Shown: piece by piece, positions 6,255 through 32,515 of the stretch
How the letters are laid out: every line of letters starts with the position of its first letter
Position numbering within the stretch: position 1 is the first letter of the stretch
Origin: Candidatus Tayloriibacteriota bacterium
GTDB taxonomy: Bacteria; Patescibacteriota; Minisyncoccia; Phycocordibacterales; PALSA-1337
Length of the DNA stretch: 64,000 nucleotides
Assembly (NCBI GenBank): GCA_028286665.1
Contig: JAQBRD010000012.1
Coordinates: 841 to 64,840 of the forward strand
Reading direction: 5' to 3'
Translations under genes and position numbers: made by a program
Notes under the pieces: model-generated
Seen by the model: the letters and a program-made list of their open reading frames with translations, nothing else
What the model was told of the DNA's origin: nothing
Database searches by the model: none

Positions 6255-7313
6255 ATGGAAACACGCTCCCAATATTACATGTTCGTCGGATTGCTTATCG
6301 GCGCATTCTGCCTCGCTGCGCTCGTCTTCCTGCCGTACATGACGGCGATCGTCATCGCGATCGTGCTCTCGGTCATCTTCAGGCCAGTCCATCGTCTCGT
6401 CGCGAGATTCGTCGCAAAAGGAGATCAGGGAAGCACGTGGGCAACGATCGTGTCGATCATCGTCATCGCGATCATCGTCATCACGCCGCTCACATTCCTC
6501 GCGATCAGGCTCTATACTGAAACAGGAACGCTCTATCTGAGCCTCACTGACGAAGGCGAACGCGCGCACATCATCTCATCTCTCAACAAGGGCCTCAGCG
6601 GCATCGCGCACACCTTCGATGTCACTCCGACATTCAATTTCGATTCGTTCAACGTGACCGAATACATCCAGAGCTTCTTCGATTGGCTGCTGTCGAACAT
6701 GGACACGGTCTTCTCGAGCGCTGCGAAGATCGGCTTGAATATCTTCGTCATCCTCCTCGCGCTCTTCTATCTGCTCCGCGACGGCAATGCGCTCCGCAAG
6801 CAGCTCATCCTCTTCAGTCCGCTCAAGGACGATCATGAGTCCCAGATTCTTGATAAGCTCAAGCAGGCGATCCATTCGGTCGTCTCCGGCAGCATCGTCG
6901 TCTCCATCATGCAGGGAATCCTTTCGGGCATCGGCTTCTCGATATTCGGAGTGCCGAACCCTGTGCTCTGGGGAACGATCGCGATGATCGCCGCTTTCAT
7001 TCCAGGCATCGGCACCTCGCTCGTCATGATTCCTGCGATCCTCTATCTCTTCGTCATGTCGACGCATCTGCACGCGCTCGGCATGCTTATCTGGGCGATA
7101 CTCGCAGTCGGTCTCGTGGACAACCTGCTTTCGAGCTTCCTCATAAATAGGAAGGTGCGAATCCATCCGTTCCTCATCCTGCTCTCGGTGCTCGGAGGCC
7201 TTTCGTTCTTCGGACCGGTCGGTTTCATCCTCGGCCCGCTCATACTCGCGTTCCTATTCGCCTTGATTGAAATATACAAGACGAATCATTCGGCACCATC
7301 GCATAATAGCTAA
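6255..7313 (+). CDS. AI-2E family transporter (UPF0118/PerM-like permease)
   Basis: Eight-helix permease topology with the conserved C-terminal G-rich helices. Extended -10 TGCTAGAAT at 6238-6246, 8 nt before the ATG. Confidence 0.75.
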   Translation: METRSQYYMFVGLLIGAFCLAALVFLPYMTAIVIAIVLSVIFRPVHRLVARFVAKGDQGSTWATIVSIIVIAIIVITPLTFLAIRLYTETGTLYLSLTDEGERAHIISSLNKGLSGIAHTFDVTPTFNFDSFNVTEYIQSFFDWLLSNMDTVFSSAAKIGLNIFVILLALFYLLRDGNALRKQLILFSPLKDDHESQILDKLKQAIHSVVSGSIVVSIMQGILSGIGFSIFGVPNPVLWGTIAMIAAFIPGIGTSLVMIPAILYLFVMSTHLHALGMLIWAILAVGLVDNLLSSFLINRKVRIHPFLILLSVLGGLSFFGPVGFILGPLILAFLFALIEIYKTNHSAPSHNS

Positions 7314-7366
7314 ATTGGCATCGTGTGTGCTAGACTCTTATTTCTTCATAATTTTCTCAAAACCAT

Positions 7367-8497
7367 ATGTCTTTCATCGACGAAATCACAATTCATGCTC
7401 GGGCAGGACGTGGCGGCGACGGCGTCGTGCTGTGGCGCCATGAGCGCGCGAAGGAATTCGCAGGAGCCGCCGGCGGCAATGGCGGAAGGGGAGGCGACGT
7501 ATACATACGGGCTGTCCGCGATCTTTCGATACTCAACAGATACCGCAACTCGAAGGAATTCGAGGGAGGCAACGGCACCGACGGCATGAGGAACAGCATG
7601 CATGGAAAGGACGGAGACGACATCACGATCGATCTTCCGATCGGTTCCATCGTGAAGGATATGCGGAATGGCCGGCTCGTCAGCCTGCTCAGTGACGGCC
7701 AGCTCATCAAGATCCTGAAGGGAGGCCGCGGAGGTCTCGGCAACGAGCATTTCAAGGCTTCGACGAATGTCACGCCGCTGCAATCGACTCCCGGAAAGGA
7801 GGGCGAAGAATCCGATTTCCATATCGAACTCGAACTCGTGGCGGACGGCGGACTCATCGGCTTGCCGAATGCGGGAAAGTCGTCGCTCCTGAATGCGCTC
7901 ACGAATGCCGATGCGAAAGTCGGCAGCTACCAATTCACCACGCTCGAACCGAACCTCGGCGCATTGCCGGGAGGCTTCATCCTCGCTGACATTCCCGGAC
8001 TCATCGAAGGCGCTTCGGAAGGCAGGGGCCTCGGCATCAAATTCCTCCGCCACGTGAAGCGCACCCGCATGCTTTTCCATCTCATTTCTCTCGAAGGCGT
8101 CGTCGATATCACCAAAAAGGCCGACAAGGTCTCGAAGTTCGACGCTGATAGCGTCGCCGAAGTATACGAGACGATCCGAGAAGAGCTCAAGAAATACAGC
8201 GACGCGCAGGCGAAGATCGCAGAGGAGAGTATCGATGGCGTGCTCGACGAGCAGGCGTCGAATCTCGATCAGAAGCCTGAGACGATCATCTTCACCAAGA
8301 CCGACGTATTCGGCACTGACAAGAAGGTCATCGCGGCAGGACTCGCAGCTGCGAAGAAATCGATCATGAAAGTCGCCAATGCCGGCAAGAAGCCTGCGAA
8401 CAAGATCAAGGAAAGCGATATCCTTTCAGTCACCATCCTCGACGATGTCTCAGTGAAAGTCCTCATGGATGAAATCGTGAAGCGGCTCCGGGCATAG
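7367..8497 (+). CDS. obg: GTPase Obg/CgtA
   Basis: Obg fold with GGDGG/GGNGG repeats, followed by the G-domain motifs GLPNAGKSSLLNA and DIPGLIEGA. Confidence 0.95.
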   Translation: MSFIDEITIHARAGRGGDGVVLWRHERAKEFAGAAGGNGGRGGDVYIRAVRDLSILNRYRNSKEFEGGNGTDGMRNSMHGKDGDDITIDLPIGSIVKDMRNGRLVSLLSDGQLIKILKGGRGGLGNEHFKASTNVTPLQSTPGKEGEESDFHIELELVADGGLIGLPNAGKSSLLNALTNADAKVGSYQFTTLEPNLGALPGGFILADIPGLIEGASEGRGLGIKFLRHVKRTRMLFHLISLEGVVDITKKADKVSKFDADSVAEVYETIREELKKYSDAQAKIAEESIDGVLDEQASNLDQKPETIIFTKTDVFGTDKKVIAAGLAAAKKSIMKVANAGKKPANKIKESDILSVTILDDVSVKVLMDEIVKRLRA

Positions 8498-10080: not shown

Positions 10081-10156
10081 AATCTGCTTATTTTGCTTCA
10101 TTTATCCCCACTTTTTTGCTCAAAAAAGCCGCATTTCCGTGCTAAACTACTGGGGA

Positions 10157-13100
10157 ATGAACGAGCTACCCTCAAATTTCAGGAAATCTTTCCTCATAAC
10201 GGCAATTTTGCTCGCCTTTTTTCTCGTTTCATCGAATATTTCATACGCATTTTCTTTCAATGACCTGCTGCAGCCCGCGAATAAGGGCATGCAGGTCGTC
10301 GGCAATTCCGCTCTCCAGGCGCTTTCCTTCGAGTCGATCAAATCCTTCATCCCGGATGTCATCAATAGGTTCGCCTCGAATCTTAACTGTACGGTCGATG
10401 AAGTCATCGGGCGAGACCTGACTGCGGTGTGCGCGAAAAGTCCCGCAATCCTCGCCTCTCGGAAGGTTCCTGCTTCTCATAATTTGGCTTCTGTCGATCC
10501 TGGAAAGGGCGCGCTTGCGTCCAAGGACAAGCCTGCTGCAAATCCAGCTGCTGCAGCTCCGGATCAAACAGTAGCCGCTGCGCCCGCAGTCACTCCAAGA
10601 CCTCAGACGACAACAGTCCAGACGCAGACAGTTCAGGTCGCTTCTGTTTCTTCGAATCTTTCATCGGCAGAATTCGCAGCTATCCAGCGGCAGCTTGCGG
10701 ATGTTTTCGAAAGCATCAGGCTGCAATCGCGCCAGATCACCTCGACTGTCGATCATCTCGGATCGGCGTCGAGCGGCGGCGGTGGCAGCGTGAACTCGGA
10801 CCAGATCAATGGCTCGATCTCAGGCCTCTCATCACGGATATCTTCATTGGCTGCAAGCTCTACTGACGCGGGCAACATCACCGCTGGCATACTCTCAATT
10901 CCGTATGGAGGCACGGGGACATCGACCGCTCCGGCATTCGGCCAGCTTCTCCTTGGAAATGCGAATGGCGGATACGATCTTGTTTCGACATCATCCCTCG
11001 GAATCGTAGGCGCCGGTTCGGTCGGAACAAGCACGATCAATTTCGGCACGACAGGTCAGCTCGCATATTATGCTTCAGACGGCACAGCCGTTTCAGGAAT
11101 CTCGACTTCGTCGCTCGGCCTCACTACTTCGAACATTGCCGAAGGATCGAACCTCTACTTCACCGCCCTCCGCGCCTCCACCACCGCCGGCCAGGTCGTC
11201 GCCGCCGCGACCTCGACCGTCCGCAATTTCATCTCGTCCTCGGCTTCAGGCCTTACGTACGCACCGAGCACGGGAATATTCTCGCTGACTTCCGGCTTCA
11301 ATATCCCGCTGTCGGCTTCGAGCACCGAATGGGCTTCCTTCTTCAATGCGCCCTCGTCGCGGATCACGGCAGGCAATCTCCTCTCGTGGACGGGGAACAC
11401 GCTCAATGTCTCGACCTCGTCGCTCGGCCTCACTACTTCGAACATCGCCGAAGGGTCGAACCTCTACTATACCGATGCCCGCGCCTCGACGACCGCGATC
11501 AATGTTCTCGCAGCCACGACCTCGCTGCCGAATATCGCTACATTGGCGGGGCTGACGTCGGCTCCCTCGCTCGCGCTCTCCGCTTCGAACATCACGTCCG
11601 GCGTCCTCGCGGTCGCCCGCGGCGGCACCGGCACGACGACTGCGCCGACGCTCGGGCAGATACTCCTCGGAAACTCGGCAGGCGGATACAATCTCGTCGG
11701 GACCTCGACGCTCGGGTTCCTCACTACGGATGTGAGCGAGGGATCGAATCTCTACTACACCGACGTTCGCGCAGATGCCCGCATCGCCGCCGCGACCTCG
11801 ACCGTCCGCAATTTCATCTCGTCCTCGGCTTCAGGCCTTACGTACGCACCGAGCACGGGAATATTTTCACTGACTTCCGGCTTCAATATCCCGCTGTCGG
11901 CTTCGACAACTGACTGGAATATTGCATTCGTCAACAGGATCACCGGCGTGAACGGCCCTCTCTCGCTCCTTTCGAATGCGCTCTCGATCACTCGGGCCTC
12001 AAGCACTGCAGACGGATATCTCGCTTCGACCGACTTTGCGGCATTCACTGCGAAGGAATCTGCGATCGCCGCTTCTACTACAAGTTCATATTTCAGGGGA
12101 GACAAGACATTCCAAGCACTCGATACGTCAGCCGTTGCTGAAAATGGAAACCTCTACTTCACCGCCCTCCGCGCCTCCACCACCGCCGGCCAGGTCGTCG
12201 CCGCCGCGACCTCGACCGTCCGCAATTTCATCTCGTCCTCGGCTTCCGGACTGACGTATGCTCCGAGCACCGGCATCTTTTCACTGACTTCCGGCTTCGC
12301 CATTCCGCTCACTGCGTCGACGTCTGACTGGGCTTCTTTCTTCAACACTCCTTCATCGAGAATCACTGCAGGTGGCGCCCTCGCATGGACGGGGAACACG
12401 CTTAGCGTCGCGACATCGTCGCTTGGATTGACGACGACGAACGTCGCTGAAGGGAATAATCTGTACTATACGACAGCCCGTGCCTCGACCACCGCGATCC
12501 AGGTGCTTGCCGCTACGACATCTCTTCCGAACATAACGACACTATCAGGAATCACTTCATTCGGAACCGCAAATATTACGACGACTGCTGCCGGCAGCTT
12601 CGCAGCAGGCACTACGACCGTGTCAGGTCGCCTCAGCGTCGGCACTACTCCACCGGCAGCGACGCTCGGCGTGAAGGGAACTGCAGGCACGAGCCCGTTC
12701 GTTGTCGCTTCATCGACCGGTTCACAGCTGCTCACGCTGCTCCAGAGTGGAAATCTCGGTGTAGGCACTACAAATCCTCTCTACAAATTTGATATCACCC
12801 AATCAGGTTCGGCCAGCGGTTTCCATCTCGGCGGAGATTCGACAGATAAAGGATTGTATATAACGAACGTGCCCGGAACGAATGATACATATTTCGGAAA
12901 TGTTGCTTTCAATTCAAGCGGTCAATGGGTCTTAAAATCTACATACGGATCATTTACCGGGTTTGATTCCTCAGGCACATCTTTTTATAGCGACAGTGGC
13001 TTAACTACCGGCGCTGCATATACTCCGACCCGTCGAATGCTCATTACTCCTACGGGGAACGTAGGAATCGGAACCACCCCTTCGACTGCGAAGCTCGAAG

Positions 13101-16100
13101 TGGCAGGAGAGACTCTCGGCCAATACTTCACAGCCAATACGCAGACGGAATCTACGCTCCCTCGGCTTGTAAGCACAAACGCAACTTCTACCACGCTCGC
13201 AGCACTGACCTCGGTTGATATCGGAAGCGGGAATCTGATGCTTGCTGCCGGCGAGATTGGATTGACTAATACCTTGAATATCTGGGATCCTATCAACGGT
13301 GCAAATTCATCATTCATAGGATATGGTGGACAAAATGACGCGTCATATAATCATGAATTCTTCGGGACTATTCATGCGAACAGTGACCTATTTGTGAGCG
13401 GCACTTTGGCAAGCGATAACTGGAGCATTGATACCAACGGAAATTTCAACGGAACAGCGTCTAATGCTGGTTACGCGTATGGTGCAGGCTATGCATTTAA
13501 CGCAGGTTCAGATTTCAATAGTTTTTTTCATGCTAATGGATACCTAGGAGGCACCAACCTCTATGATGATGGCACCGCGTCTTTCGGAGGCGCTGTGAGC
13601 GGAGGTTCTTTTGCAGGCAATGGCTTCATTGGCTACAATTTCGGCAATAGCAATATCATGAATTCGGACGCTCCGAATGCGGCAACGGGGTACGTCACGC
13701 TTACTGGGGTACCTTCCGATGGTGACATGGTCACCATCTCAGACGGAATCGTTACATATAATTTCGAATTCGATAATGACAGCAATCTCCAGAATGGAGG
13801 AGATTATGGAGTGACGATCGGCGGCGGCACGACTGCGACAGCATACGCATTGTATGCGTCTGTGGGTAGTTCCGGGATGAATATGTCATATAGCATCGAC
13901 GATACGATCGATACGGTTTATTTCACTAATAGTTCATATGGCATAGCTGGAAATGTCACTATTACCAGCACGGCGGCGGATATTACCCTATCGGGCATGT
14001 CGGGCGGGTATGATGGCGGAGGCTATACCGGAAGCTATGCGTTCGGAAGCGGAAATACCATTCTTGCCAGCGGCGCGCACATTTTGGGAAGCAGCATAAC
14101 GAATAATATCGCAGATTCTGTCCAGATCGGCCCAAACAATGCGTCAAAAATAACCATCAACTCGAGCGGGAATGTCGGTATCGGCACGACTACCCCTTCG
14201 AATCGACTTTCAATCGGTTCTCGTAACCCAACGGATTCGACTGACAGGAAGGCTATCGAGCTGAATGCCGGAGGTTACGGAGCTCCCGGCGCATACGGCT
14301 CGAATTCAAACGGAGACAAGATCATTCTCTATAGGGATGCTGCCGCGAACTATGACTCGACGATCGGCGTCGGCGCTGCGGGGGACACCTGGTTCAAATC
14401 TTTCGGTCCTTCTACGACAGGGCAATTCGGCTGGTATACCGGCGGCAGCAGCACAGCGAGGATGGTTCTGGATCCTTTGGGAAATCTCGGCGTCGGCACG
14501 ACTACTCCTGGGTCGAAGCTTTCAGTCGGCGGCGACATCAATTTCACCGGCGATATATACAGGAACGGCGTGCTGTATTCTCAGACGCTTGCAACAAGCC
14601 AGTGGACGACTTCCGGGTCGAATATTTATTACAATACAGGGAGTATAGGAATCGGCACCGCAGCGCCTGATTCGCAATTCCATGTCTCAGGAAGCTCTAC
14701 CGGAGCGACGATTGTTCAGGGGAAGTTTGAGAATGTGAATGATTTCGGCAGAAGCCAATTCATCGTCACAAGCGGAACTTATCCGAACAATTTCTTTGCT
14801 CTGATGACCCATGGCAGTTCCTTCGCGAGCGACAACTATCTGAATGACGGAACTTCGGACGCGGGACTAGGATTGCTCCTCGGTCAGGGCACGCAGATGA
14901 CTAAATTCGCAGTCGGCACATATGATGCGAAGCCGCTGGCATTATTTACGAGCAACACGGAACGATTGAGTATCACATCGAGCGGCACTGTCGGCATCGG
15001 CACCACCACTCCCGCGGCAAAGCTCGCGGTCTCCGGAACCGCAGGCGTCACCACCGACATCTTCTCGGTGGCATCGTCGACGAACGCCAAATTCTTCACG
15101 GTCACTGCTGCAGGCAATGTCGGCGTCGGGTCATCGACTCCTTCCGCTAAGTTCGCCATCACCGGCACCGCGGGAACAGCAGACATATTCGCAGTAGCTT
15201 CGTCTACCGACGCGCGTCTTTTTACGATCACGAGTGACGGAAAGGTGGGAATCGGCACCACCACGCCGTCGGCTCGTCTCGGCCTTTACGGTATCGCTGG
15301 CACGTCGGATATCTTTGCAATCTCGTCCTCGTCGAATTCTCGACTCCTTACATTCACTTCTGCAGGAGAACTCGGCGTAGGAACTTCGACTCCTTCAGCG
15401 AAGCTCGCGGTCTCCGGAACCGCAGGCGTCACCACCGACATCTTCTCGGTGGCATCGTCGACGAACGCCAAATTCTTCACGGTCACTGCTGCAGGCAATG
15501 TCGGCGTCGGGTCATCGACTCCGATCGGCACTCTTTCAGTGAAAGGATCTGCTGCGCTCGATCCGTTTATCGTCGCATCCTCTACTGATAGCAGGCTCCT
15601 CACGCTTAATGCGCTCGGCAACCTCGGACTCGGGACCACCACCCCTTCAGCGAAGCTCGCAGTCTCCGGAACCGCAGGCGTCACCTCCGACATCTTCTCG
15701 GTCGCTTCATCGACGGACGCGAAGCTATTCACGGTGAAGAGCACCGGCTTCGTGGGCATCGGAACAGCCGTTCCTACTTCTGCGCTTACATTCGCTGACG
15801 CAAGCACGATCGATTCGATCGGAAGCTTGACGATCAAGTCGACGACGACGAATGCCCTCACGCTCGATTCCGGAACGACCGGAGCGATCGGCATCGGTAC
15901 GAGTGCAAACGCCAAGACGATAACTCTTGGAAACGGCACTGGCGCGACATCGCTCGTCCTCAACGCAGGAACGGGCAACATCGATATCGGCGTCAATGAC
16001 TTCGCTCGCAATATCAATATCGGCACCGGAGGTACCGCTGTTCAGACTATAGCAATAGGTGGTGCCGCAGCCAACGTCATCACGATCGGAACGACGCAGA

Positions 16101-17611
16101 CCGCAGGCTCCATCTCCCTCGGCGACGCGATGACCGGCGGCACGATCAACATCGGCGGCACCGGCCTCCAGACCGGAACGATCGGCCTCGGCACGGGCAC
16201 GGGCGCGCAGACCATCAGCCTCGGCACGGGCACGGGACTCAAGACGCTTTCGATCGGAGGAACGGGCGCGAACGTGATCGCCATCGGCAACACGCAGACC
16301 GGCGGATCGATCGCGATGGGCGCGGCCATGACCGGAGGCACGATCACCATCGGAGGCACCGGCCTCCAGACCGGAACGATCGCAATCGGCACCGGAACCG
16401 GCGCGCAGACCATCAACCTCGGAACCGGAGGCACGGGAGCGAAGACCATCGCGATCGGAACGGCTGCTGTCGCAAACACCATTACTATCGGTAACTCGAC
16501 AGGCGCTACTTCGATTGCCCTGACTGCAGGAACCGGCGGAATCTCACTCACAGGCAATACCGGCGTCGGCACGACAACTCCGGTAGCTAAGCTCGATATT
16601 TATGGAACTGCAGGTGCTGCCGACATTTTCGCAGTCTCATCTTCGACGAACTCGCGACTCATCACTGTTACCGCGGCAGGCCGCATGGGCATCGGCACAT
16701 CGACGCCCCTGTATCCTTTCCATGTGCAGACAACAGTTGCCGGCGGCGTGGCAGGCTTCACTGATGCTGATGGTACATGTACCGTCGACCCGACCTCGAC
16801 ATCCCTCGTCTGCTCCTCTGACCGACGCCTCAAGAAGGATATTGTTTCTATAAATAGCATCACGGCGCTCGACAAGATCAATCAGCTCCAGGGAGTCAAT
16901 TTCCGATGGAATAATCAGACGAGCGATACGCTCCGATACGGCTTCATCGCGCAGGACCTTGAACAGATATTCCCAGAGCTCGTTCAGACCGATATCAACG
17001 GCTTCAAGAGCGTCGCATACACCGCGCTCACTCCGGTCCTCGCAGAAGCGATCAAGCAGCTCGACGTGAAGGTCAATGATCTCAATGCCCGAGTAAGCAC
17101 TTCGACATTGAAATCAATGATTCTCGATATGGGTGATTGGGTGGTGACGAAGATCACTGCGCCGTTCGCTTCATTCAAGCATGTCGAAACCGAAACAGCT
17201 TCAGTTTCAAATGGACTTGAGATGAAGGATTCGGCGAGCGGACAAGTATGGTGCGTGCGGATTACGAATGGAGAATGGGCAAAGGTTCCTGGCAAGTGTT
17301 CGGATGCGGCTCCGGCAGTTTCGACAACTCAGCCTTCAGTAACGCCGGCATCTCCCGCACCAGCAGCAACTACGACGCCGCCAGTTGCGCCGGCTCCAGC
17401 TGCTTCTGCAAGCTCGACCGAAGCTGTGCCTGCTACGACTACTCCGGCAACTGCAGATACGACAGTCGCCGCATCTTCGACAGCGCCTTCGGCGATGTCT
17501 GCAGCCGATGCGACCTCGACTCCGGTTTCTGCCGCAACTCAGCCTGAACCGACACCCGCGCCTGACTTGCCGGCTGTTCCTGCGCAGGGAAGCACCGAAG
17601 CTTCTCAATAA
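10157..17611 (+). CDS. Giant secreted tail-fibre-like repeat protein with C-terminal peptidase S74 (intramolecular chaperone autoprocessing) domain
   Basis: Signal peptide. Multiple about 60-aa and about 40-aa repeat families, then a Gly-rich GTGxxTIxIGT block. Near the C-terminus, the motif SDRRLKKDIVSI...ALDKINQLQGVNFRWN...GFIAQDLEQIFPELV...GFKSVAYTALTPVLAEAIKQL is diagnostic of the S74 chaperone-of-endosialidase domain. A two-Cys mini-domain and a Pro/Thr/Ala-rich tail follow. Start set at ATG 10157, which sits 8 nt after TGCTAAACT; the ORF-track start 10139 is a GTG inside the -10 box. Confidence 0.8.
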   Translation: MNELPSNFRKSFLITAILLAFFLVSSNISYAFSFNDLLQPANKGMQVVGNSALQALSFESIKSFIPDVINRFASNLNCTVDEVIGRDLTAVCAKSPAILASRKVPASHNLASVDPGKGALASKDKPAANPAAAAPDQTVAAAPAVTPRPQTTTVQTQTVQVASVSSNLSSAEFAAIQRQLADVFESIRLQSRQITSTVDHLGSASSGGGGSVNSDQINGSISGLSSRISSLAASSTDAGNITAGILSIPYGGTGTSTAPAFGQLLLGNANGGYDLVSTSSLGIVGAGSVGTSTINFGTTGQLAYYASDGTAVSGISTSSLGLTTSNIAEGSNLYFTALRASTTAGQVVAAATSTVRNFISSSASGLTYAPSTGIFSLTSGFNIPLSASSTEWASFFNAPSSRITAGNLLSWTGNTLNVSTSSLGLTTSNIAEGSNLYYTDARASTTAINVLAATTSLPNIATLAGLTSAPSLALSASNITSGVLAVARGGTGTTTAPTLGQILLGNSAGGYNLVGTSTLGFLTTDVSEGSNLYYTDVRADARIAAATSTVRNFISSSASGLTYAPSTGIFSLTSGFNIPLSASTTDWNIAFVNRITGVNGPLSLLSNALSITRASSTADGYLASTDFAAFTAKESAIAASTTSSYFRGDKTFQALDTSAVAENGNLYFTALRASTTAGQVVAAATSTVRNFISSSASGLTYAPSTGIFSLTSGFAIPLTASTSDWASFFNTPSSRITAGGALAWTGNTLSVATSSLGLTTTNVAEGNNLYYTTARASTTAIQVLAATTSLPNITTLSGITSFGTANITTTAAGSFAAGTTTVSGRLSVGTTPPAATLGVKGTAGTSPFVVASSTGSQLLTLLQSGNLGVGTTNPLYKFDITQSGSASGFHLGGDSTDKGLYITNVPGTNDTYFGNVAFNSSGQWVLKSTYGSFTGFDSSGTSFYSDSGLTTGAAYTPTRRMLITPTGNVGIGTTPSTAKLEVAGETLGQYFTANTQTESTLPRLVSTNATSTTLAALTSVDIGSGNLMLAAGEIGLTNTLNIWDPINGANSSFIGYGGQNDASYNHEFFGTIHANSDLFVSGTLASDNWSIDTNGNFNGTASNAGYAYGAGYAFNAGSDFNSFFHANGYLGGTNLYDDGTASFGGAVSGGSFAGNGFIGYNFGNSNIMNSDAPNAATGYVTLTGVPSDGDMVTISDGIVTYNFEFDNDSNLQNGGDYGVTIGGGTTATAYALYASVGSSGMNMSYSIDDTIDTVYFTNSSYGIAGNVTITSTAADITLSGMSGGYDGGGYTGSYAFGSGNTILASGAHILGSSITNNIADSVQIGPNNASKITINSSGNVGIGTTTPSNRLSIGSRNPTDSTDRKAIELNAGGYGAPGAYGSNSNGDKIILYRDAAANYDSTIGVGAAGDTWFKSFGPSTTGQFGWYTGGSSTARMVLDPLGNLGVGTTTPGSKLSVGGDINFTGDIYRNGVLYSQTLATSQWTTSGSNIYYNTGSIGIGTAAPDSQFHVSGSSTGATIVQGKFENVNDFGRSQFIVTSGTYPNNFFALMTHGSSFASDNYLNDGTSDAGLGLLLGQGTQMTKFAVGTYDAKPLALFTSNTERLSITSSGTVGIGTTTPAAKLAVSGTAGVTTDIFSVASSTNAKFFTVTAAGNVGVGSSTPSAKFAITGTAGTADIFAVASSTDARLFTITSDGKVGIGTTTPSARLGLYGIAGTSDIFAISSSSNSRLLTFTSAGELGVGTSTPSAKLAVSGTAGVTTDIFSVASSTNAKFFTVTAAGNVGVGSSTPIGTLSVKGSAALDPFIVASSTDSRLLTLNALGNLGLGTTTPSAKLAVSGTAGVTSDIFSVASSTDAKLFTVKSTGFVGIGTAVPTSALTFADASTIDSIGSLTIKSTTTNALTLDSGTTGAIGIGTSANAKTITLGNGTGATSLVLNAGTGNIDIGVNDFARNINIGTGGTAVQTIAIGGAAANVITIGTTQTAGSISLGDAMTGGTINIGGTGLQTGTIGLGTGTGAQTISLGTGTGLKTLSIGGTGANVIAIGNTQTGGSIAMGAAMTGGTITIGGTGLQTGTIAIGTGTGAQTINLGTGGTGAKTIAIGTAAVANTITIGNSTGATSIALTAGTGGISLTGNTGVGTTTPVAKLDIYGTAGAADIFAVSSSTNSRLITVTAAGRMGIGTSTPLYPFHVQTTVAGGVAGFTDADGTCTVDPTSTSLVCSSDRRLKKDIVSINSITALDKINQLQGVNFRWNNQTSDTLRYGFIAQDLEQIFPELVQTDINGFKSVAYTALTPVLAEAIKQLDVKVNDLNARVSTSTLKSMILDMGDWVVTKITAPFASFKHVETETASVSNGLEMKDSASGQVWCVRITNGEWAKVPGKCSDAAPAVSTTQPSVTPASPAPAATTTPPVAPAPAASASSTEAVPATTTPATADTTVAASSTAPSAMSAADATSTPVSAATQPEPTPAPDLPAVPAQGSTEASQ
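11108..12310 (+). repeat. Intragenic near-identical direct repeats (about 150-180 bp units, at least three copies)
   Basis: DNA-level identical blocks (aacctctacttcaccgccctccgcgcctccaccaccgcc...cgcaatttcatctcgtcctcggcttc) near 11150, 11780 and 12141. The shorter SSLGLTTSNIAEGSNLY unit also repeats at 11108 and 11411. Confidence 0.8.
15020..15522 (+). repeat. Intragenic 122-bp perfect direct repeat (15020-15141 and 15401-15522)
   Basis: Identical sequence aagctcgcggtctccggaaccgcaggcgtcaccaccgacatcttctcggtggcatcgtcgacgaacgccaaattcttcacggtcactgctgcaggcaatgtcggcgtcgggtcatcgactcc at both sites. Confidence 0.85.
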
Positions 17612-17679
17612 TAGAAGTATTTCAACAACTGAGGATAAGTCAGCATTTCCATATTTCAATCATGGTATAATTACGTCGA

Positions 17680-20600
17680 ATGAAGCAGCGACTACCAAAT
17701 CAACGATGGTTATTTGCGCTAATAGCTTTTGCGATCGCGCTTTTTTCTATTTCTCCGAAAATTTCCCAGGCGTATTTCTCAGACATCTTCAAGGAAGGAG
17801 CTTCTGTCGTCATGTCCAGCACTTTGAATGGGATGAATGCTGTCGGAAAATCGACGATCCAGGCATTCTCATTCGAATCGATCAGGTCCTTCATTCCGAA
17901 CTTCATCAATTCAGCCGCATCAGGAATGAATTGCGGCGTAAATAAAATCGTCGGCGCTCCTCTTCCTGTTGTCTGCATGAAAAATCCGGCATCCGTCCTC
18001 GCAGCCGCATCAGCAGACGCATTTGTGCCTGTGCCTATGCCTGCGCACGCGTACGTTGCGGCTGTTCCGGCACCAGCATCAATATCAAAACCGTCTTCGG
18101 CATTATCGTCAGCCTCGATACCGACGCGACTCCCGCCTCCGTCTGCGCCGCAGGTCTCGACTCAGACGCAGCTTACTTCAGCAGAGTACGATGCTATTCA
18201 GCAGCAGCTTGCGAATATCGCCTTGGGCACCAGGAGTCAGCTTATCCGGCAGACGGACTCCACAGTCGATCATGTCGGCCAGTCCATGTCGAATCTCGCG
18301 ACGTCGGTCGCGTCTGCAGCGGCGAATGCATCGAACGCTGGCAATATCACTTCAGGCGTTCTGTCGGTCGCGCACGGAGGCACCGGAGCGACGTCAACTC
18401 CGACGTTCGGACAGGTCCTTCTCGGCAATGCAAGCGGCGGATATGATCTCGTATCGACATCGTCGCTCGGGATCACGAGCGGCGCCAGTTCGCAATGGAC
18501 CACATCAGGTTCCAATATCAGCTTCATTGCTGGCAATGTGGGCATCGGCTCATCGACGCCGATCGCGACGCTTTCAGTGAAGGGAACTGCAGGCACGAAC
18601 CCTTTCGTCGTCGCTTCGTCGACTGACGTGCAGCTCCTTACGCTCCTCCAGAATGGAAGCTTCGGCATCGGCACAAGTTCACCGGTATCGACCCTGTCCG
18701 TTGCGGGAAGCGGAACATTCACCGGAGGCGCAAGCTTCGGCGGCAGCGTCGGCATCGGCACGTCTACGCCGATCGCGACGCTTTCAGTGAAGGGAACTGC
18801 AGGCACGAACCCCTTCGTCGTCGCTTCGTCGACCGGCGCGCAGCTCCTTACGCTCCTCCAGAATGGAAGCTTCGGAATCGGAACTGCAGCTCCGAATGCA
18901 AACGCGATCCTCGACGTATTCCAGGGAGCGAGCACGACGCGCATCAGCAGAACGACGACGCAGTATATACAGTTCACCACGGACGGAGTGGTCAATGAAG
19001 TGAGGGGCGTGAGCGTTTCAGGAGGCGCGAAGCCTTTCCGAATCGCGAGCGATTCGAATAGCAGCGGCCTCCGCCTCTTCACCGGCACGACGGATAAAGT
19101 GTTCATCGACAACAACGGCTTGGTCGGCATCGGCTCGACGACGCCTTCTGCGCTGCTCACGCTGCTCGGATCAAATGCTGCGACAACGACGCTTTCGATC
19201 AGGCCTGCAGCATCGCAGACTGCGAGCCTCGTCAATTTCTATGATACTACTGGAGCGATCTCATCGGTCATCGCCGCTGGCGGAAACTTCGGCATCGGCA
19301 CGACGACTCCGGGATCCAAGCTTGTGGTGAACGGAGACATCAATCTCACCGGCAATATTTATCAGAACGGCGTCCTTTTCACGGGCGGCGGTGGAAGCTC
19401 GCAATGGACGTCTTCGAGCACTGATATTTATTACAATACCGGCAACGTCGGCATCGGCACCAATTCCCCGATATACAAGCTAGACATAGCCGGAACCGCT
19501 CATGTCTCAAGCGACCTCACTGTCGGCGGAATCTTCACGACGACCGCATTCACCGCAAATGGAACAGCCACATCCTTCAATGATGCGATAACTATAAATC
19601 AGTCTACAAGCTCGACGCGATTTGTCCGTCCTGGAACTCCTGTGTTGCAAGCTATCGACATCACGACTGACAGCAATTCGAATAGGATAAAAGCATTCGC
19701 TGGACCCGGCACGAACAAGCAATTCCGAATCGAAGCCGATATCGGAATGACTGGACTTTCGCTGAGAACAGGAGGTTCTGAACGAGTCCTCATCGGCCCG
19801 AGCGGAGACGTATCCGTCGGAACGGCATCGACGAGCGCAAGGTTCACTCTCATGGCGTCCTCATCTCCGACGTATGCGATATTCGATGTGACTGACACAT
19901 CGCGCAATTCTTTTTTCAAAGTCTTCGGCAACGGCTTTGTCGGCATCGGCACGACGACCCCTTCGGCAAGATTCGCGCTCGACGGATTCAGCGGCGCGGA
20001 TAATGCTAACGCATCGCAAGCACTCGCGATCTATGGTGGTAAGGGGGGTCTGAACAACAACGCGACTCCGGGCGGATTCAGCGGAGGAGGCATAGATCTT
20101 TTTGCCGGTCCGGGCGGAGATTCGAGCGGAGGCGGCGTCGACGGCGGCAGCGGAGGTGTCGTCAATATATTCGGCGGAGCAGGCGCATCGAACGGCGATG
20201 GTACCGAAAACGCAGGACTCGGAGGCGCAGTCAACATCGGCGCGGGCAACGGAGCTGCTTCTCTGGGCGGCGGCTTAGGAGGGGCGCTTACGCTCGCATC
20301 AGGAAATGGCGGCAATGATACTGCGAGTGGATTCGGTCAGCCTGGCGATGGCGGCCTCCTGAGCGTCATTGCAGGTTTTGGCGGATCAAGCAACGATAAT
20401 TCCGTGAATGGCGCGAATGGAGGAAATGTCATCATCAGCGGCGGAGCACCCGGGGCTGGTCTTGTCGCAGGCTCGTATGGAAATATCATCATGAATCAGA
20501 ACGGAGGAAAGGTCGGCATCGGCACCTCTACGCCTCTGTACAGACTTCATATCCAGCGATCCGGAGACGGACCGGTCGCAGGCTTCACCGATGCCAACGG

Positions 20601-21456
20601 CACATGTACCATCGATCCGACGTCGACATCGCTCATCTGTTCGTCCGATCGCCGACTCAAGAAAGATATCGTTTCAATAAATGGCGCAACAGCGCTCGAC
20701 CAGATCAATCAGCTCCAAGCTGTCAATTTCCGATGGAACAATCAATCGACTGATACGCTCCGCTTCGGATTCATCGCGCAGGATTTCGAAAAAGTATTCC
20801 CGCAGCTCGTCCAGACTGACGTCAACGGCTTCAAGAGCGTCGCATACACAGCGCTCACGCCTGTGCTCGCCGAAGCAATCAAGCAGCTTGATGTGAAAGT
20901 GAATGCGCTCACGATAGCGACGAGCACTTCGACTTTGAAGTCCATGATACAGGGCATAGGGGATTGGACTGTCGGAAAGATCACCGGAACAGTCGCGTTG
21001 TTCGGCGACCTGAAGGCCGACGCGCTGACGGTCGGATCGCCATCGAAGCCTTCGGGCATTACGCTGTATGACGGGGTCACCGGCCAGCCGTATTGCCTCA
21101 AGGTGATGAATGGAACAATGCAGAATTTCCCAGGGGATTGTGCAACTCCTACCTCGATTCAGCCTTCAAATCAGCCTTCGACCCCTGGAAACGTCCCTAT
21201 GAGCACTGTTTCCGATCCAAATACCGCAACAACGACAGTTACCACAGCCGGAACCGCTTCATCAGGCGAAACAAGCACTTCTACGGCTCCAGCAGCCACA
21301 TCCACCGAATCGGCAGTTACGACTGAAATAGCCACTTCTACAGCCCAGATGCCTGCACCGGAGCCAGAAATAGCCCCAATTACAGCCACGCCTGATCCAA
21401 CGCCCACACCAGTTTCAGAGCCTGCCGCGCCTGCGCCAGAGGTTCCAGTTCAGTAA
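17680..21456 (+). CDS. Paralogous giant secreted tail-fibre-like protein with C-terminal peptidase S74 domain
   Basis: The N-terminal about 90 aa are homologous to the upstream giant protein. Same repeat families. Gly-rich GGxGG block. The S74 motif SDRRLKKDIVSINGATALDQINQLQAVNFRWNNQSTDTLRFGFIAQDFEKVFPQLV is about 85% nucleotide-identical to the region of gene 1 around 16,740-17,080. A Cys mini-domain and PT-rich tail follow. TATAAT lies 8 nt before the ATG. Confidence 0.8.
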   Translation: MKQRLPNQRWLFALIAFAIALFSISPKISQAYFSDIFKEGASVVMSSTLNGMNAVGKSTIQAFSFESIRSFIPNFINSAASGMNCGVNKIVGAPLPVVCMKNPASVLAAASADAFVPVPMPAHAYVAAVPAPASISKPSSALSSASIPTRLPPPSAPQVSTQTQLTSAEYDAIQQQLANIALGTRSQLIRQTDSTVDHVGQSMSNLATSVASAAANASNAGNITSGVLSVAHGGTGATSTPTFGQVLLGNASGGYDLVSTSSLGITSGASSQWTTSGSNISFIAGNVGIGSSTPIATLSVKGTAGTNPFVVASSTDVQLLTLLQNGSFGIGTSSPVSTLSVAGSGTFTGGASFGGSVGIGTSTPIATLSVKGTAGTNPFVVASSTGAQLLTLLQNGSFGIGTAAPNANAILDVFQGASTTRISRTTTQYIQFTTDGVVNEVRGVSVSGGAKPFRIASDSNSSGLRLFTGTTDKVFIDNNGLVGIGSTTPSALLTLLGSNAATTTLSIRPAASQTASLVNFYDTTGAISSVIAAGGNFGIGTTTPGSKLVVNGDINLTGNIYQNGVLFTGGGGSSQWTSSSTDIYYNTGNVGIGTNSPIYKLDIAGTAHVSSDLTVGGIFTTTAFTANGTATSFNDAITINQSTSSTRFVRPGTPVLQAIDITTDSNSNRIKAFAGPGTNKQFRIEADIGMTGLSLRTGGSERVLIGPSGDVSVGTASTSARFTLMASSSPTYAIFDVTDTSRNSFFKVFGNGFVGIGTTTPSARFALDGFSGADNANASQALAIYGGKGGLNNNATPGGFSGGGIDLFAGPGGDSSGGGVDGGSGGVVNIFGGAGASNGDGTENAGLGGAVNIGAGNGAASLGGGLGGALTLASGNGGNDTASGFGQPGDGGLLSVIAGFGGSSNDNSVNGANGGNVIISGGAPGAGLVAGSYGNIIMNQNGGKVGIGTSTPLYRLHIQRSGDGPVAGFTDANGTCTIDPTSTSLICSSDRRLKKDIVSINGATALDQINQLQAVNFRWNNQSTDTLRFGFIAQDFEKVFPQLVQTDVNGFKSVAYTALTPVLAEAIKQLDVKVNALTIATSTSTLKSMIQGIGDWTVGKITGTVALFGDLKADALTVGSPSKPSGITLYDGVTGQPYCLKVMNGTMQNFPGDCATPTSIQPSNQPSTPGNVPMSTVSDPNTATTTVTTAGTASSGETSTSTAPAATSTESAVTTEIATSTAQMPAPEPEIAPITATPDPTPTPVSEPAAPAPEVPVQ

Positions 21457-21874: not shown

Positions 21875-21892
21875 TCTCACCAACCTCTAAAC

Positions 21893-21920
21893 AAAAAATC
21901 CCCGAAAGGGGATTTTTTGT
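21893..21920. terminator. Bidirectional rho-independent terminator between convergent genes
   Basis: AAAAAATCCCC GAAA GGGGATTTTTT: a GC stem flanked by an A-run and a T-run. It sits between the + strand RRM gene and the - strand LOG gene. Confidence 0.8.
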
Positions 21921-21965
21921 TTGTATAATTTTGTAACCTGGCATCCAAATGCGCTTTCCTTTCTC

Positions 21966-27212: not shown

Positions 27213-27452
27213 ATGTCTAATGTAGAATTCGATGCTGATGAGCAGGGAGGCGGAAAACTCCAGCGCTTCAGCTCACAATACGCCTCTCAGTACGACGCTC
27301 AGCAGCCGAAACGCGCTTCCGGCATGGCTTCGTTGCTGATCAAGATGCACATCATCGACGATCCTGATCAGGCAAAAAACGTCTACGTCGTCGTCCTCAT
27401 CCTCAATTTCATCGCAGCGGGACTCATCTTCTATTTCTACGTACTCAGATGA
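27213..27452 (+). CDS. Small hypothetical protein with a C-terminal transmembrane helix
   Basis: 79 aa. Its stop overlaps the ATG of the pilin gene (ATGA), implying translational coupling. Confidence 0.4.
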   Translation: MSNVEFDADEQGGGKLQRFSSQYASQYDAQQPKRASGMASLLIKMHIIDDPDQAKNVYVVVLILNFIAAGLIFYFYVLR

Positions 27453-27997
27453 AAACGAATCGAGGCTTCACGCTTATCGAGCTTCTGGTCGTGATTTCAA
27501 TAGTAAGTCTTTTGTCGAGCATCGTTCTCGCATCGCTGACTTCAGCACGTGCAAAGAGCCGGGATACTCAGCGCATGCGCAATTTCCACGAGATCCAGAC
27601 TGCGCTGCAGCTGTATGCGACAGACAATGGCGGAAAGTTTCCTGATTCTTCGGCCATATTGCTCGACGATTTCATCGACAGCGTCGATGTTGCTCACCCC
27701 GGAGGCTGGTCGACGCTCAAGACTCAACTCGGCAGGTATATACGGAAGCTTCCGGTCGACCCGATGAATAACGGCAGATGGAGCGATGCTGTGGGGAATT
27801 ATTCCTACTCGTATTATTACAACGTGAATACCGATTCTGATTATGATCTGGTCGCGAAGCTCGAAAATGCCAGCAGTCCGTATCGGGCGACTGTACGGCA
27901 TTACTCTCGCCATTCGAGCGTCCTTCCGGGGTCCAGCGTGCTTTGGGAAAGCGTCCTTCCGAGCGCCGGTTCCAACCTCTTGTACTCTGATCATTGA
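27449..27997 (+). CDS. Type IV pilin / pseudopilin (prepilin-type N-terminal cleavage/methylation domain)
   Basis: N-terminal MKTNRG-FTLIELLVVISIV is the classic prepilin peptidase site (G|FTLIE). Confidence 0.8.
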   Translation: MKTNRGFTLIELLVVISIVSLLSSIVLASLTSARAKSRDTQRMRNFHEIQTALQLYATDNGGKFPDSSAILLDDFIDSVDVAHPGGWSTLKTQLGRYIRKLPVDPMNNGRWSDAVGNYSYSYYYNVNTDSDYDLVAKLENASSPYRATVRHYSRHSSVLPGSSVLWESVLPSAGSNLLYSDH

Positions 27998-31800: not shown

Positions 31801-32515
31801 ATCATCCGGTTCTGCTGCCATGCTTCCGACGCTCAATTTGGCTCCGCTTCCTTCATTCAGCAATAGCGTTTCAAACAATCTCGGAGTCTCGCATCTCGGC
31901 AACCCTCTCGAAGGCCTCAAGGCTTTCAGTTCGCTGAAGCTTTCCACGCTCTCGTTCAAGTTCGTGCCGCAGATCTCGACATTCGTCTTCGCGCCGCTTC
32001 CAGCATCGGTTGCGAAGATACTCGGCAGATCTCCGAAGCTGTCGAACCTCGTCGCATCCGTCGGCGTCTCTCGCGAGCAGGATCTCGTCGCGCTTCTCCG
32101 GAACCCGATCCTGATCCCGAAGCCTGCTGCAGGCGACATTCCGCCAGGACTCTTCATCGCGACTGCCTCCAGCACGCCGCTCGAGCTGTATCTCGCCGGA
32201 GACGCTGAGCATCGTCTTGCGGAACTTGTCCGGACGCAGCCGGGAACTGTTCTCGATATCGCATTCGTGCCGCTGAGCAAGAGCAGCGTACAGGCCAAAT
32301 TCCGCGGCAGCCCGATCAAATTCTTCGCATCGCGCACGGCAGAGGTGCATGCAGTAATCGCTGCTCCTGATGTTCCCGGCAGATATTTCATGACTACTTC
32401 CGCCGCTCCATTTCCGCTCATCATCGAAGTTGTCGCACTGAAGCAGCAGTCTGCGCCGGCGAAGCCTGAGGCGAAAGGGAAGTTCGGCAGCTGGCTGAGC
32501 GGACTGTTTCATTAA
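28820..32515 (+). CDS. Large secreted protein with tandem about 20-aa N-x-S/T-sequon repeats, a Gly-rich block and a DUF5011-like Ig domain
   Basis: Signal peptide. At least 20 units of the form ATFN[GDA]SSYN-G between about 29390 and 30560. A Gly-rich GGxGG region at about 31080-31440. The segment DTAPPVITLNGSS...GATAVDAVSG...YVKTYTAADAAGN...TRTITV matches the bacterial Ig-like DUF5011 pattern. TGCTAAAAT lies 9 nt upstream. Confidence 0.8.
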   Translation: MAANRIYSKKAFFSIFLSVLMPLLLLSVLISDPASSDAAGGCAPSIYWYKTGADAYWTTLAGNWWTDEAHTSQASALPASGACVGTVPDSEIPIVVVDDVPEVSTLAGIDATATGIIFTSSDGASFPNIHYEIQGDVTLKGSVVLQGELHAAGTITFDGTSVNQGSPDRNSLVFSGASHNEANFPGGSGTFTFNGSSYNTGFLDAAFVTFNGSSHSDGGIFGSITFNGSSYTTNQIAGGSHTILNTDHYGGVVPIGGVLTLNGNQNWWATEGGNAYDSNDQLITSFIFNGSSYLHQDSQVSGDAVFNDSSHIDGSVSGNAKMNTDYYGGVVPTGGVITLNGTQVWNAPVTMITDSNDEPITSIIFNESSYNAGTVNAMAAFNGSAYNAGYIYGTSTFNGVSFNGAGGTPGSVAIFNASSSNRSDVMGEATFNDSAYNTGNLYNTATFNASSSNLYGASIYSPATFNGTSYNEGYIEALTTFNASSSNAGGGIINGDAEFHGVSYNGGSVTGSATFNDSTYNIFNVAVLATFNDFSHNDAATDFPADAIFNDSSFNQTNAVVYGHATFNDLSYNLGTIDSDATFNTAYYGGVLPAGGLFTIGGGKSWYGSVGNIAFGSDDATITAFAFMGTSTNEGTVFATVPANATTTFYEDLSENHGIVNGTKVRRYTSNATTTRNFITSGPWTVIADGATVDLSGSSFNATTTFRTLNGGAFGVLSTACAAPLPGTLSYVLSGDISGSCTVASSDVTIDGNDHAISGNVIANGIASGASGFNLNLARVTVGGTVSSNGANGTIGGSGGTITISSSTVAAVRANGGNGTGNGGNGGIIALVDSTSTALSANGGNSSNNGAGGSGGTISLENSTSTSISVSAGTDGPNKNPAQDSGHGGTSHATDTAPPVITLNGSSAVSIAFGGTYVELGATAVDAVSGSRTVVISGSVNTAVAGVYVKTYTAADAAGNSASKTRTITVRAQATAANTNPPGGAATPAHASSRSSGSAAMLPTLNLAPLPSFSNSVSNNLGVSHLGNPLEGLKAFSSLKLSTLSFKFVPQISTFVFAPLPASVAKILGRSPKLSNLVASVGVSREQDLVALLRNPILIPKPAAGDIPPGLFIATASSTPLELYLAGDAEHRLAELVRTQPGTVLDIAFVPLSKSSVQAKFRGSPIKFFASRTAEVHAVIAAPDVPGRYFMTTSAAPFPLIIEVVALKQQSAPAKPEAKGKFGSWLSGLFH

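Follow-up and report, generated by a model that had tools for sequence, protein, structure and literature searches.

A Tandem Pair of Giant Secreted Proteins

The DNA considered here is a stretch of 64,000 nucleotides (the window) from contig JAQBRD010000012.1, part of the metagenome-assembled genome (MAG) of an uncultivated Candidatus Taylorbacteria, which NCBI places in the Parcubacteria group under the Patescibacteria group, or candidate phyla radiation (CPR). Two large adjacent genes on its forward strand, referred to below as gene 1 and gene 2, encode what are probably precursors of trimeric, self-processing cell-surface fibres. The list of open reading frames (ORFs) agrees with the extent and strand given for both genes in the original prediction, which had been made from the sequence alone. 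The ORF of gene 1 first opens at GTG 10139; ATG 10157 was favored as the start because its M1 aligns with that of gene 2 and of an orthologue from a metagenome contig (P0002). The gene 2 product is 100% identical in sequence to the NCBI entry "hypothetical protein JWO73_282" of Candidatus Taylorbacteria.

Genes 1 and 2 are tandem paralogues. BLASTP aligned their C-terminal 304 residues at 54% identity (E = 3e-92) and their N-terminal ~290 residues at 40% identity (E = 6e-44), and shaft repeats are also common to both, in line with the signal peptide, N-terminal module, and repeat families that they had been said to share. No third copy of any module of either protein is encoded within the window. 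Each protein contains exactly six Cys, arranged in three pairs that are all conserved between the two: one in an N-terminal module, one in a C-x10-C loop just before the sequence S-S|D-R-R-L-K-K (the bar marking the predicted cleavage site), and one in a module behind the S74 domain. Such conserved pairing fits extracytoplasmic disulfides and thereby supports export. Elsewhere in the window (61273–63195, + strand), a gene adjoining that of a methionine sulfoxide reductase encodes a DsbD-type transmembrane domain fused to redoxin/thioredoxin domains, which may be relevant to disulfides outside the cytoplasm, given the three Cys pairs per fibre.

The S74 Chaperone Domain and the Tip Loop

Peptidase_S74 (PF13884, gathering score 22) was the sole Pfam family found in each protein, matching residues 2221–2276 of gene 1 (67.2 bits, E = 1.6e-18) and 989–1044 of gene 2 (62.5 bits, E = 4.7e-17). 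These matches came from the hidden Markov model (HMM) search that had been suggested as a check on the predicted intramolecular-chaperone domain, and the assignment as a genuine S74 domain is borne out by an invariant Ser/Lys dyad and by the predicted fold. The motif S-D-x-x-x-K occurs in both proteins as SSDRRLKK; its Ser and Lys (Ser53 and Lys58 of alignment A2, the Lys five residues after the Ser) are invariant in 18 homologues. An AlphaFold2 (AF2) monomer model of residues 936–1156 of gene 2 reached a predicted local distance difference test (pLDDT) score of 78–91 over the S74 domain, with the linker left without a confident model. Searched against the PDB with Foldseek, this model retrieved the ICA domain of MyRF (7dc3, E = 7.8e-6) as the best match, as well as the endosialidase chaperone (3gw6, E = 6.5e-3). 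In sequence, the S74 part matched the phage-fibre chaperones 6f45, 8jov, and 8hqz.

By homology to these domains, the S74 region would be expected to drive trimerization and then cleave itself from the fibre. Cleavage at the predicted Ser|Asp bond would release D2222–Q2484 of gene 1 (263 residues, 27.3 kDa) and D990–Q1258 of gene 2 (269 residues, 27.9 kDa), close to the roughly 28-kDa C-terminal fragment originally foreseen, and leave mature chains of 217 and 94 kDa, respectively. The loop that ends at the predicted scissile bond is kept in CPR and Bdellovibrio homologues alike.

The S74 domains of the two proteins are 82% identical, compared with 40% for the N-terminal 290 residues and 36% for the post-S74 module, and the DNA coding for the pre-S74 and S74 regions (16688–16987 versus 20515–20814) is 77% identical. 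The far higher identity of the S74 domains points to strong constraint or gene conversion, and it raises the possibility of mixed trimers of gene 1 and gene 2 chains.

A Conserved Two-Cys Module behind the Chaperone

In the usual phage arrangement, the S74 domain lies at the extreme C-terminus; here, ~170 residues follow it. Phage PHROGs and solved chaperone chains (6f45, 8jov) stop at residues ~1077–1091 of gene 2 and ~2314–2317 of gene 1. Because the phage profiles and chains themselves reach no further, the final 169–175 residues of the two proteins are extra. They consist of a linker and a small module with two Cys (C2366/C2381 in gene 1, C1139/C1154 in gene 2), followed by a low-complexity tail of 103 or 104 residues in which Ala, Pro, Thr, and Ser together make up 79% (gene 1) or 68% (gene 2). 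A nonterminal S74 domain trailed by a two-Cys module and a Pro/Thr/Ala-rich tail is thus present as originally described. In the AF2 model of gene 2, the module forms a small three-stranded sheet (pLDDT ~80).

An alignment of 25 sequences (A1) yielded the module pattern G[IL]x[LM]xDxxTGxx[YW]C[VL]x[IV]xNGxxxxxxGxC, in which G, C, G, G, and C residues are invariant and a G and the D nearly so. The module was recognized by neither Pfam nor NCBIfam, and its profile retrieved nothing below E = 0.2 among PDB sequences; the gene 1 hairpin weakly resembled a scorpion toxin (6ohx, E = 0.22), which was treated as chance. About one-quarter of the first 120 homologue matches carry the module behind S74. 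With HMMER, 1.84 billion representative proteins were searched exhaustively, and the module was detected in 2250 at E ≤ 1e-3 and in 864 at E ≤ 1e-10. The module alignment gave no match against a word index of 5.8 billion proteins, which looks like a limit of the index given the HMMER result. The module therefore appears to be a conserved domain new to Pfam, NCBIfam, and the PDB.

In the module proteins collected here, a single copy is present, without exception close to the C-terminus; the tail behind it has a median length of 118 residues, with at least 70% P/T/S/A/E/D/G/N/Q in 138 of 166 cases. A recognizable S74 domain stands just upstream in about two-thirds of the complete proteins (median gap, 27 residues); in the remaining third or so, the upstream region is degenerate or different and unnamed by Pfam. 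Eight module proteins without a recognizable S74 domain (P0142, P0157, P0176, P0182, P0184, P0197, P0198, and P0207) have a common upstream region (…GRVPVKV..ENGPIKAGDYITSS..GVGMKAT…), likewise unnamed by Pfam and possibly a chaperone or tip domain of a second type. A phi29-type Peptidase_G2 chaperone was considered for these eight and rejected, as Pfam found neither PF11962 nor PF13884 in them. In some proteins, folded Ig-like (immunoglobulin-like) domains follow the two-Cys module (P0157 by PF16403; P0101, P0176, and P0257 by eye). Such domains lie inside the would-be cut-off fragment, a hint that this fragment, once released, may be functional.

The N-Terminal Part and the Shaft

After the signal peptide, both proteins run through a ~70-residue Cys module, a Pro/Ala-rich spacer of ~55–65 residues, a predicted helix, and a "GGTG" module before entering the shaft (Table 1); in gene 1, a second GGTG copy occupies residues 462–522. 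The sole hydrophobic segment of each product (residues ~11–29) is preceded by a basic stretch, with no further membrane segment beyond it in either product. I28, S29, and A31 of an I-S-x-A motif at residues 28–31 are invariant across gene 1, gene 2, and P0002, and the N-terminus is a Sec signal peptide with a likely signal peptidase I site. Among the 120 best matches, only the query itself and P0002 have the N-terminal module. A single-sequence search of the word index with this module missed even the protein itself, again apparently an index limit. The module is a candidate cell-proximal anchor by analogy to other surface fibres.

Chunked self-comparison of the proteins delineated several repeat families in the shaft of gene 1, and 13 occurrences of the motif G[IVLF]G[TS]x2-3P were counted in gene 1 against 9 in gene 2. 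Phage tail-fibre PHROGs cover residues 394–1078 of gene 2, and a phage tail-fibre PHROG (phrog_18345) matches residues 1564–1716 of gene 1. Neither PF12789 nor the phage tail-fibre repeat families of Pfam, suggested earlier as further checks, matched either protein at E ≤ 0.01. At the same threshold, there was no match to the YadA head, stalk, or β-barrel anchor families in either product, and identification as trimeric autotransporters was rejected.

Table 1. Features of the fibre gene pair, with positions in the window
Feature	Position	Strand	Basis or remark
Gene 1, 2484-residue fibre precursor	10157..17611	+	ORF list and translation; ATG 10157 preferred over GTG 10139
Gene 1 signal peptide, residues 1–31	10157..10249	+	Basic n-region, hydrophobic core, I-S-x-A|F site; putative cleavage
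Gene 1 N-terminal module, residues 32–100, Cys pair C78/C92	10250..10456	+	Conserved with gene 2 and P0002 only
Gene 1 Pro/Ala-rich linker, residues ~101–165	10457..10651	+	Translation, alignment
Gene 1 predicted helical stalk and GGTG module, residues 166–285	10652..11011	+	Low-confidence helix prediction
Gene 1 array of ~100-residue repeats, residues ~290–801	11024..12559	+	≤84% protein identity; DNA repeat families D2, D4, D6
Gene 1 nonrepetitive central region, residues ~900–1330	12854..14146	+	No internal repeat match; absent from gene 2
Gene 1 shaft repeats, about seven of 42 residues (…VASST…F.VT..GNVGIGTTTPSAKLAV…), residues ~1590–1880	14924..15796	+	Self-comparison
Gene 1 Gly/Thr/Ile-rich short-repeat region, residues ~1881–2135	15797..16561	+	Self-comparison; DNA repeat D7
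Gene 1 tip loop C2208-x10-C2219-S-S, ending at predicted scissile bond S2221|D2222	16778..16819	+	Putative disulfide
Gene 1 S74 domain, residues 2221–2315, Ser2221-Lys2226 dyad	16817..17101	+	Pfam; PDB 6f45, 8jov, 8hqz; invariant Ser/Lys
Gene 1 post-S74 linker helix and two-Cys module, residues 2316–2381 (…GLEMKDSASGQVWCVRITNGEWAKVPGKC)	17102..17299	+	Alignment A1
Gene 1 Ala/Pro/Thr/Ser-rich tail, residues 2382–2484 (103 residues)	17300..17608	+	Composition
Extended -10-like element, TGGTATAAT	17663..17671	+	8 nt before gene 2 ATG; read from the sequence
Gene 2, 1258-residue fibre precursor	17680..21456	+	ORF list, translation
Gene 2 signal peptide, residues 1–31 (…ISQA|Y)	17680..17772	+	Hydrophobicity and alignment
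Gene 2 N-terminal module, residues 32–107, Cys pair C85/C99	17773..18000	+	Alignments
Gene 2 stalk and GGTG module, residues 161–268	18160..18483	+	Alignments
Gene 2 fibre shaft, residues 269–975	18484..20604	+	Nine GIGTxxPxxxL motifs; Gly-rich distal part at residues ~760–940
Gene 2 tip loop C976-x10-C987-S-S, ending at predicted scissile bond S989|D990	20605..20646	+	Alignments
Gene 2 S74 domain, residues 989–1083, Ser989-Lys994 dyad	20644..20928	+	Pfam, AF2, Foldseek
Gene 2 post-S74 linker and two-Cys module, residues 1084–1154 (…GITLYDGVTGQPYCLKVMNGTMQNFPGDC)	20929..21141	+	Alignment A1
Gene 2 Thr/Pro/Ala/Ser-rich tail, residues 1155–1258 (104 residues)	21142..21453	+	Composition

Distribution of Relatives

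A whole-protein search (cutoff E ≤ 1e-5) returned 511 homologues, most of them proteins of 1000–2200 residues with PF13884. The named minority belong mainly to Patescibacteria, with some Elusimicrobiota and Bdellovibrio, and the usual name, given by PGAP, is "tail fiber domain-containing protein". In CPR genomes, S74 proteins of 1000–6000 residues number in the hundreds. Together with the 2250 clusters that carry the post-S74 module and the already known fibres of Bdellovibrio discussed below, this overturns the earlier view that the locus is unusual: a nonterminal S74 domain is the norm across a large family of CPR proteins and no quirk of this pair.

Among GTDB species genomes, the module was present in 20 of the best 80 S74 loci (scanned with alignment A3, alignment A2 being too diverse for the purpose). 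By their labels as deposited, 17 of these 20 name a lineage, in every case CPR (Zambryskibacteria, Paceibacterota, Parcubacteria, Wolfebacteria, Patescibacteria group, and "Saccharibacteria"), and the other three are titled "bacterium isolate". S74 loci without the module among the same best 80 came from Bacteroidota, Bdellovibrio, Gracilibacteria, Aenigmatarchaeota, and others. The named members of the module-bearing protein clusters are likewise all Parcubacteria or Patescibacteria group, some of them automatically named "virion structural protein" or "hemagglutinin". None of 80 viral S74 loci had the module. Pattern scans of 2.9 million viral contigs for two module sequence types, which divergent copies could escape, found one locus for the first type and none for the second. 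That locus (L162, IMGVR_UViG_3300009285_005118) lies on a contig of genuine phage origin, which encodes portal and major head proteins; at 6465–8126, it encodes a 553-residue tail fibre with a signal-peptide-like N-terminus and an S74 domain followed by the module at the very C-terminus, with no low-complexity tail. It possibly derives from a phage of a CPR host. By its sequence distribution, the two-Cys postchaperone module appears specific to CPR. A literature search found no work that connects S74 domains or intramolecular chaperones with CPR.

Many of the other CPR fibres that end in this C-terminal cassette have a different N-domain ("INYQGKL…"), counted in 27 of 257 collected proteins. 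For N-domain HMM searches, first-round matches only were used, the second round being polluted by shaft repeats.

Chromosomal Context

Since the shaft and S74 regions match phage tail-fibre PHROGs, relatives have been automatically named "virion structural protein" or "baseplate wedge initiator", and the L162 phage fibre unites an S74 domain with the same two-Cys module, the pair could be suspected to be an ordinary tail-fibre module of a prophage or other mobile element, left in the chromosome as remnant or cargo. This origin is largely refuted by the surroundings of the pair. A Pfam scan of ORFs across the 64 kb judged likely genes found genes for a TPR protein, MurB, SecA, YibE/F, an AI-2E transporter, Obg, and GatB upstream, and for an RRM protein, TGT, PfkB, a class II aldolase (FBA), a dehydrogenase, a pilin-like protein, L25, an Ig-like surface protein, and more housekeeping functions downstream. 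The scan detected no portal, capsid, terminase, tail (including tail tube), or integrase gene in the window, upholding the original description of housekeeping neighbors with no phage structural genes nearby. The base composition of the pair is not distinct from that of its flanks, both proteins carry Sec signal peptides, and the CPR homologues P0024 and P0100 are likewise encoded among housekeeping genes.

The synteny survey that had been proposed as a check weighs further against a phage origin. In three other genomes (L001, L003, and L027), a fibre gene stands upstream of the same RRM-TGT-PfkB-FBA block, which makes it a long-standing resident of this chromosomal position. The locus is chromosomal, not prophage, and we consider a phage or mobile-element origin very improbable. 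In L001, a metagenome contig, the genes downstream of P0002 (RRM, TGT, PfkB, and aldolase) have 76–95% identity to those of the window; P0002 itself aligns with gene 2 only over its N-terminal 260 residues (36% identity) and C-terminal 260 residues (39%), its middle having been replaced. Conserved flanks around a replaced shaft are a mosaic pattern typical of receptor-binding proteins. In L003, a Taylorbacteria MAG (Candidatus Taylorbacteria bin-01970), and in L027, the fibre gene precedes the same gene order. In the syntenic fibre of L003 (7–1803), the tip with its Cys loop and the S74 domain are retained, and another short two-Cys motif (…KELCLDDVCVTKSELQALL…) stands in place of the usual module, before a Pro/Thr-rich tail.

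Within the pair, there is no terminator-like site between gene 1 and gene 2; the first strong one lies at 21888–21923, after the RRM gene. The element TGGTATAAT, which a consensus promoter scan did not list, is possibly gene 2's own promoter and would give a near-leaderless transcript. Additional cell-surface genes flank L25 6–7 kb downstream of the pair, namely a pilin-like gene whose product has a methylation motif at its N-terminus (27449–27997, + strand) and a gene for a secreted protein of 1231 residues that contains a bacterial surface Ig-like domain (28820–32515, + strand). Farther away, an Rfam tRNA match (44444–44600, − strand; 41.4 bits, 71 model positions over 157 nt) contains an insertion of ~86 nt between the anticodon stem and the T-arm and was not called by ARAGORN. 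ORFs of unknown function and an AEP-like primase gene (46564–47199) lie nearby, and a small integrated element is possible there.

Comparison with Known Systems

S74-processed chromosomal surface fibres are already known from bacteria, namely the mosaic adhesive trimer (MAT) family of Bdellovibrio bacteriovorus. This family numbers 21 fibres, of which 13 end in an S74 domain with the SDxxxK motif, and all of them begin with a signal peptide followed by a conserved β-rich N-domain of ~130 residues (PMC10769870). The fibres reside on the predator surface with their tips binding prey, and self-cleavage of Bd3182 at S782 has been reported (Caulton et al. 2024, PMC10769870). Relatives were listed in other predators and in Omnitrophica, none in Patescibacteria (PMC10769870).

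The gene pair resembles the S74 subgroup of the MAT family in being chromosomal and non-prophage and in combining a signal peptide, a long repeat-rich shaft, GIGTxxPxxxL-type loops, and an S74 domain with SDxxxK. As in that family, parts are exchanged in mosaic fashion, and the carrier depends on attachment to other bacteria for its way of life. Gene 2 can be aligned with a Bdellovibrio homologue (P0083) over the pre-S74 GIGTxxP motif, a tip of the form C-x11-C-S-S-D, and S74 itself, at 39% identity (E = 3e-30). The two ends differ. The N-module of genes 1 and 2 is ~70 residues long with two Cys and a Pro/Ala spacer, the ~130-residue β-rich MAT N-domain was not detected in them, and the N-terminus of P0083 showed no similarity to theirs. 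For the alternative INYQGKL N-domain of other CPR fibres, hhalign gave a probability of 22% for a relation to the MAT N-domain. At the other end, MAT S74 proteins finish with the chaperone, whereas genes 1 and 2 add the two-Cys module and a ~104-residue tail; P0083 ends in a coiled-coil-like stretch. The envelopes probably differ as well: Bdellovibrio has an outer membrane, and Patescibacteria are generally held to lack one. By this analogy, the gene 1 and gene 2 products would work like MAT fibres while falling outside the family as defined by its N-domain. Their own N-terminal module appears to be lineage-specific, distinct from the MAT N-domain, and new here.

Phage fibres and tailspikes (K1F endosialidase, 3gw6; T5 pb1, 4uw8/8hqz; S16 gp37, 6f45) have the same S74 sequence, Ser-Lys dyad, and fold, and parts of the gene 1 and gene 2 shafts match phage tail-fibre PHROGs. 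The phage proteins differ in that they stop at the end of the chaperone, lack a Sec signal peptide, and are encoded in virion modules. The YadA-family trimeric autotransporter adhesins are a functional analogue, being likewise long, repeat-rich, trimeric surface adhesins, and YadA-head repeats do occur in some relatives of the pair (P0197, P0026). YadA proteins, however, rely on a membrane anchor, whereas trimerization here would proceed through a cleavable chaperone in a cell with no known outer membrane.

The eukaryotic MyRF ICA domain, in addition to being the best structural match, offers a precedent for a nonterminal S74-type domain that separates two functional halves. MyRF differs in having a DNA-binding domain before ICA and a transmembrane helix and luminal domain after it; no transmembrane segment follows the S74 domain in gene 1 or gene 2. 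In MyRF, cleavage frees an N-terminal trimer from its anchor, and a comparable release switch can be imagined for the pair, with the two-Cys module and Pro/Thr-rich tail of the C-terminal fragment gripping the cell wall until self-cleavage frees the trimeric fibre as a soluble or host-directed factor. Pro/Thr-rich tails that resemble wall-spanning regions, a signal peptide that looks cleavable, and a strongly conserved post-S74 module suggestive of a function would all suit such a switch. What makes it improbable is that neither a C-terminal membrane segment nor a sorting motif is present, that a hydrophobic C-terminal end occurs in only 6 of 167 long homologues, and that the tails are highly variable low-complexity sequence, while the N-module and Pro/Ala spacer mirror the N-terminal anchoring proposed for MAT fibres.

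Proposed Mechanism

The interpretation we favor, with a probability of about 70%, is that the pair encodes trimeric, autoprocessed cell-surface fibres of Patescibacteria, built from phage-tail-fibre-like modules, maintained as stable chromosomal genes, and probably serving in attachment to a host. Its starting points, observed here, are the domain content, the catalytic residues, the S74 fold, the conservation of the extra module, and the syntenic chromosomal context. In the proposed sequence of events, the precursors would be exported through Sec and their signal peptides cut after I-S-x-A31. The S74 intramolecular chaperone would then align three chains in register and nucleate folding of the trimeric shaft, after which the Ser-Lys dyad would cut S2221|D2222 in gene 1 and S989|D990 in gene 2. 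This cut would free an acidic 27–28-kDa fragment comprising the chaperone, the two-Cys module, and the Pro/Thr/Ala tail, and the remaining chain would end in a tip loop stapled by a disulfide (C-x10-C-S-S). The mature 217-kDa and 94-kDa chains would be held on the cell by the N-terminal module and Pro/Ala-rich spacer, and the variable shaft or distal part would bind its ligand, most plausibly on the surface of the host bacterium that ultrasmall cells of this kind live on. We infer N-terminal anchoring and host binding from the Bdellovibrio MAT fibres. Scaled in proportion to mature Bd3182 (782 residues, reported at ~550 Å; PMC10769870), gene 2 might give a fibre of roughly 70 nm and gene 1 one of roughly 150 nm.

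Several observations weigh against this scheme. The anchoring role of the N-terminal module is a guess, as only one orthologue of the module was detectable, and an AF2 model of the N-terminal 290 residues built from three sequences was unusable (pLDDT 37). The Pro/Thr-rich C-terminal tail is of a kind typical of wall-spanning segments and could mean the opposite orientation. The post-S74 module is conserved yet has no assigned role in the favored scheme. Finally, the tip beside the cleavage site is conserved across distant lineages, which is unexpected for the part that would confer specificity; any binding site would therefore have to sit further up the shaft.

The last point also bears on the question of whether the proteins bind a host cell at all, the original prediction having left the choice between adhesins and surface-layer (S-layer) fibres, either of which would be a putative role. 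As structural envelope proteins, in the form of S-layer or spacer fibres, they would build or protect the surface with no part in host-cell recognition. A tip loop kept across lineages would suit this role, as would the very large, repeat-rich, Thr/Ser/Gly/Ala-rich composition of both secreted proteins, the many paralogues per CPR genome (for example, three matches on one 340,823-nt contig), and the position of the pair among housekeeping genes, with which it is possibly cotranscribed given the absence of a terminator up to 21888–21923. We nevertheless regard a purely structural role as unlikely, though less so than a release switch. Replacement of the shaft between relatives close enough for their flanking genes to be 76–95% identical fits a diversifying binding protein better than a lattice, and the closest characterized relatives are adhesive fibres.

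For the extra C-terminal part, one guess within the favored fibre interpretation is that the module and tail act as a pro-region, by which the end exported last would stay soluble or close to the envelope until three chains have come together. A tentative extension, to which we would not give even odds, is that the chaperone, the G..D..TG..C..NG......G.C module, and the tail together constitute a Patescibacteria-wide, undescribed assembly or sorting pro-region for phage-like host-recognition fibres. Were this so, the cut-off fragment would be functional, holding the last-exported end at the envelope or acting as a released factor, and the fibres would be major determinants of the hosts to which an episymbiotic CPR cell can attach.

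Significance

All cultivated Patescibacteria are described as episymbionts whose identification and binding of hosts are largely unknown, with only type IV pili implicated in binding so far (PMC12206443). The gene pair is an instance of a family-wide pattern and no singular oddity, and the locus belongs to a very large CPR family of phage-like, self-processing fibres that is apparently uncharacterized. The postchaperone module poses the question of why a chaperone that is discarded in phages carries an extra conserved part in CPR cells. The likeness to the prey-recognition fibres of Bdellovibrio makes these proteins specific and testable candidates for the means by which Patescibacteria recognize hosts.

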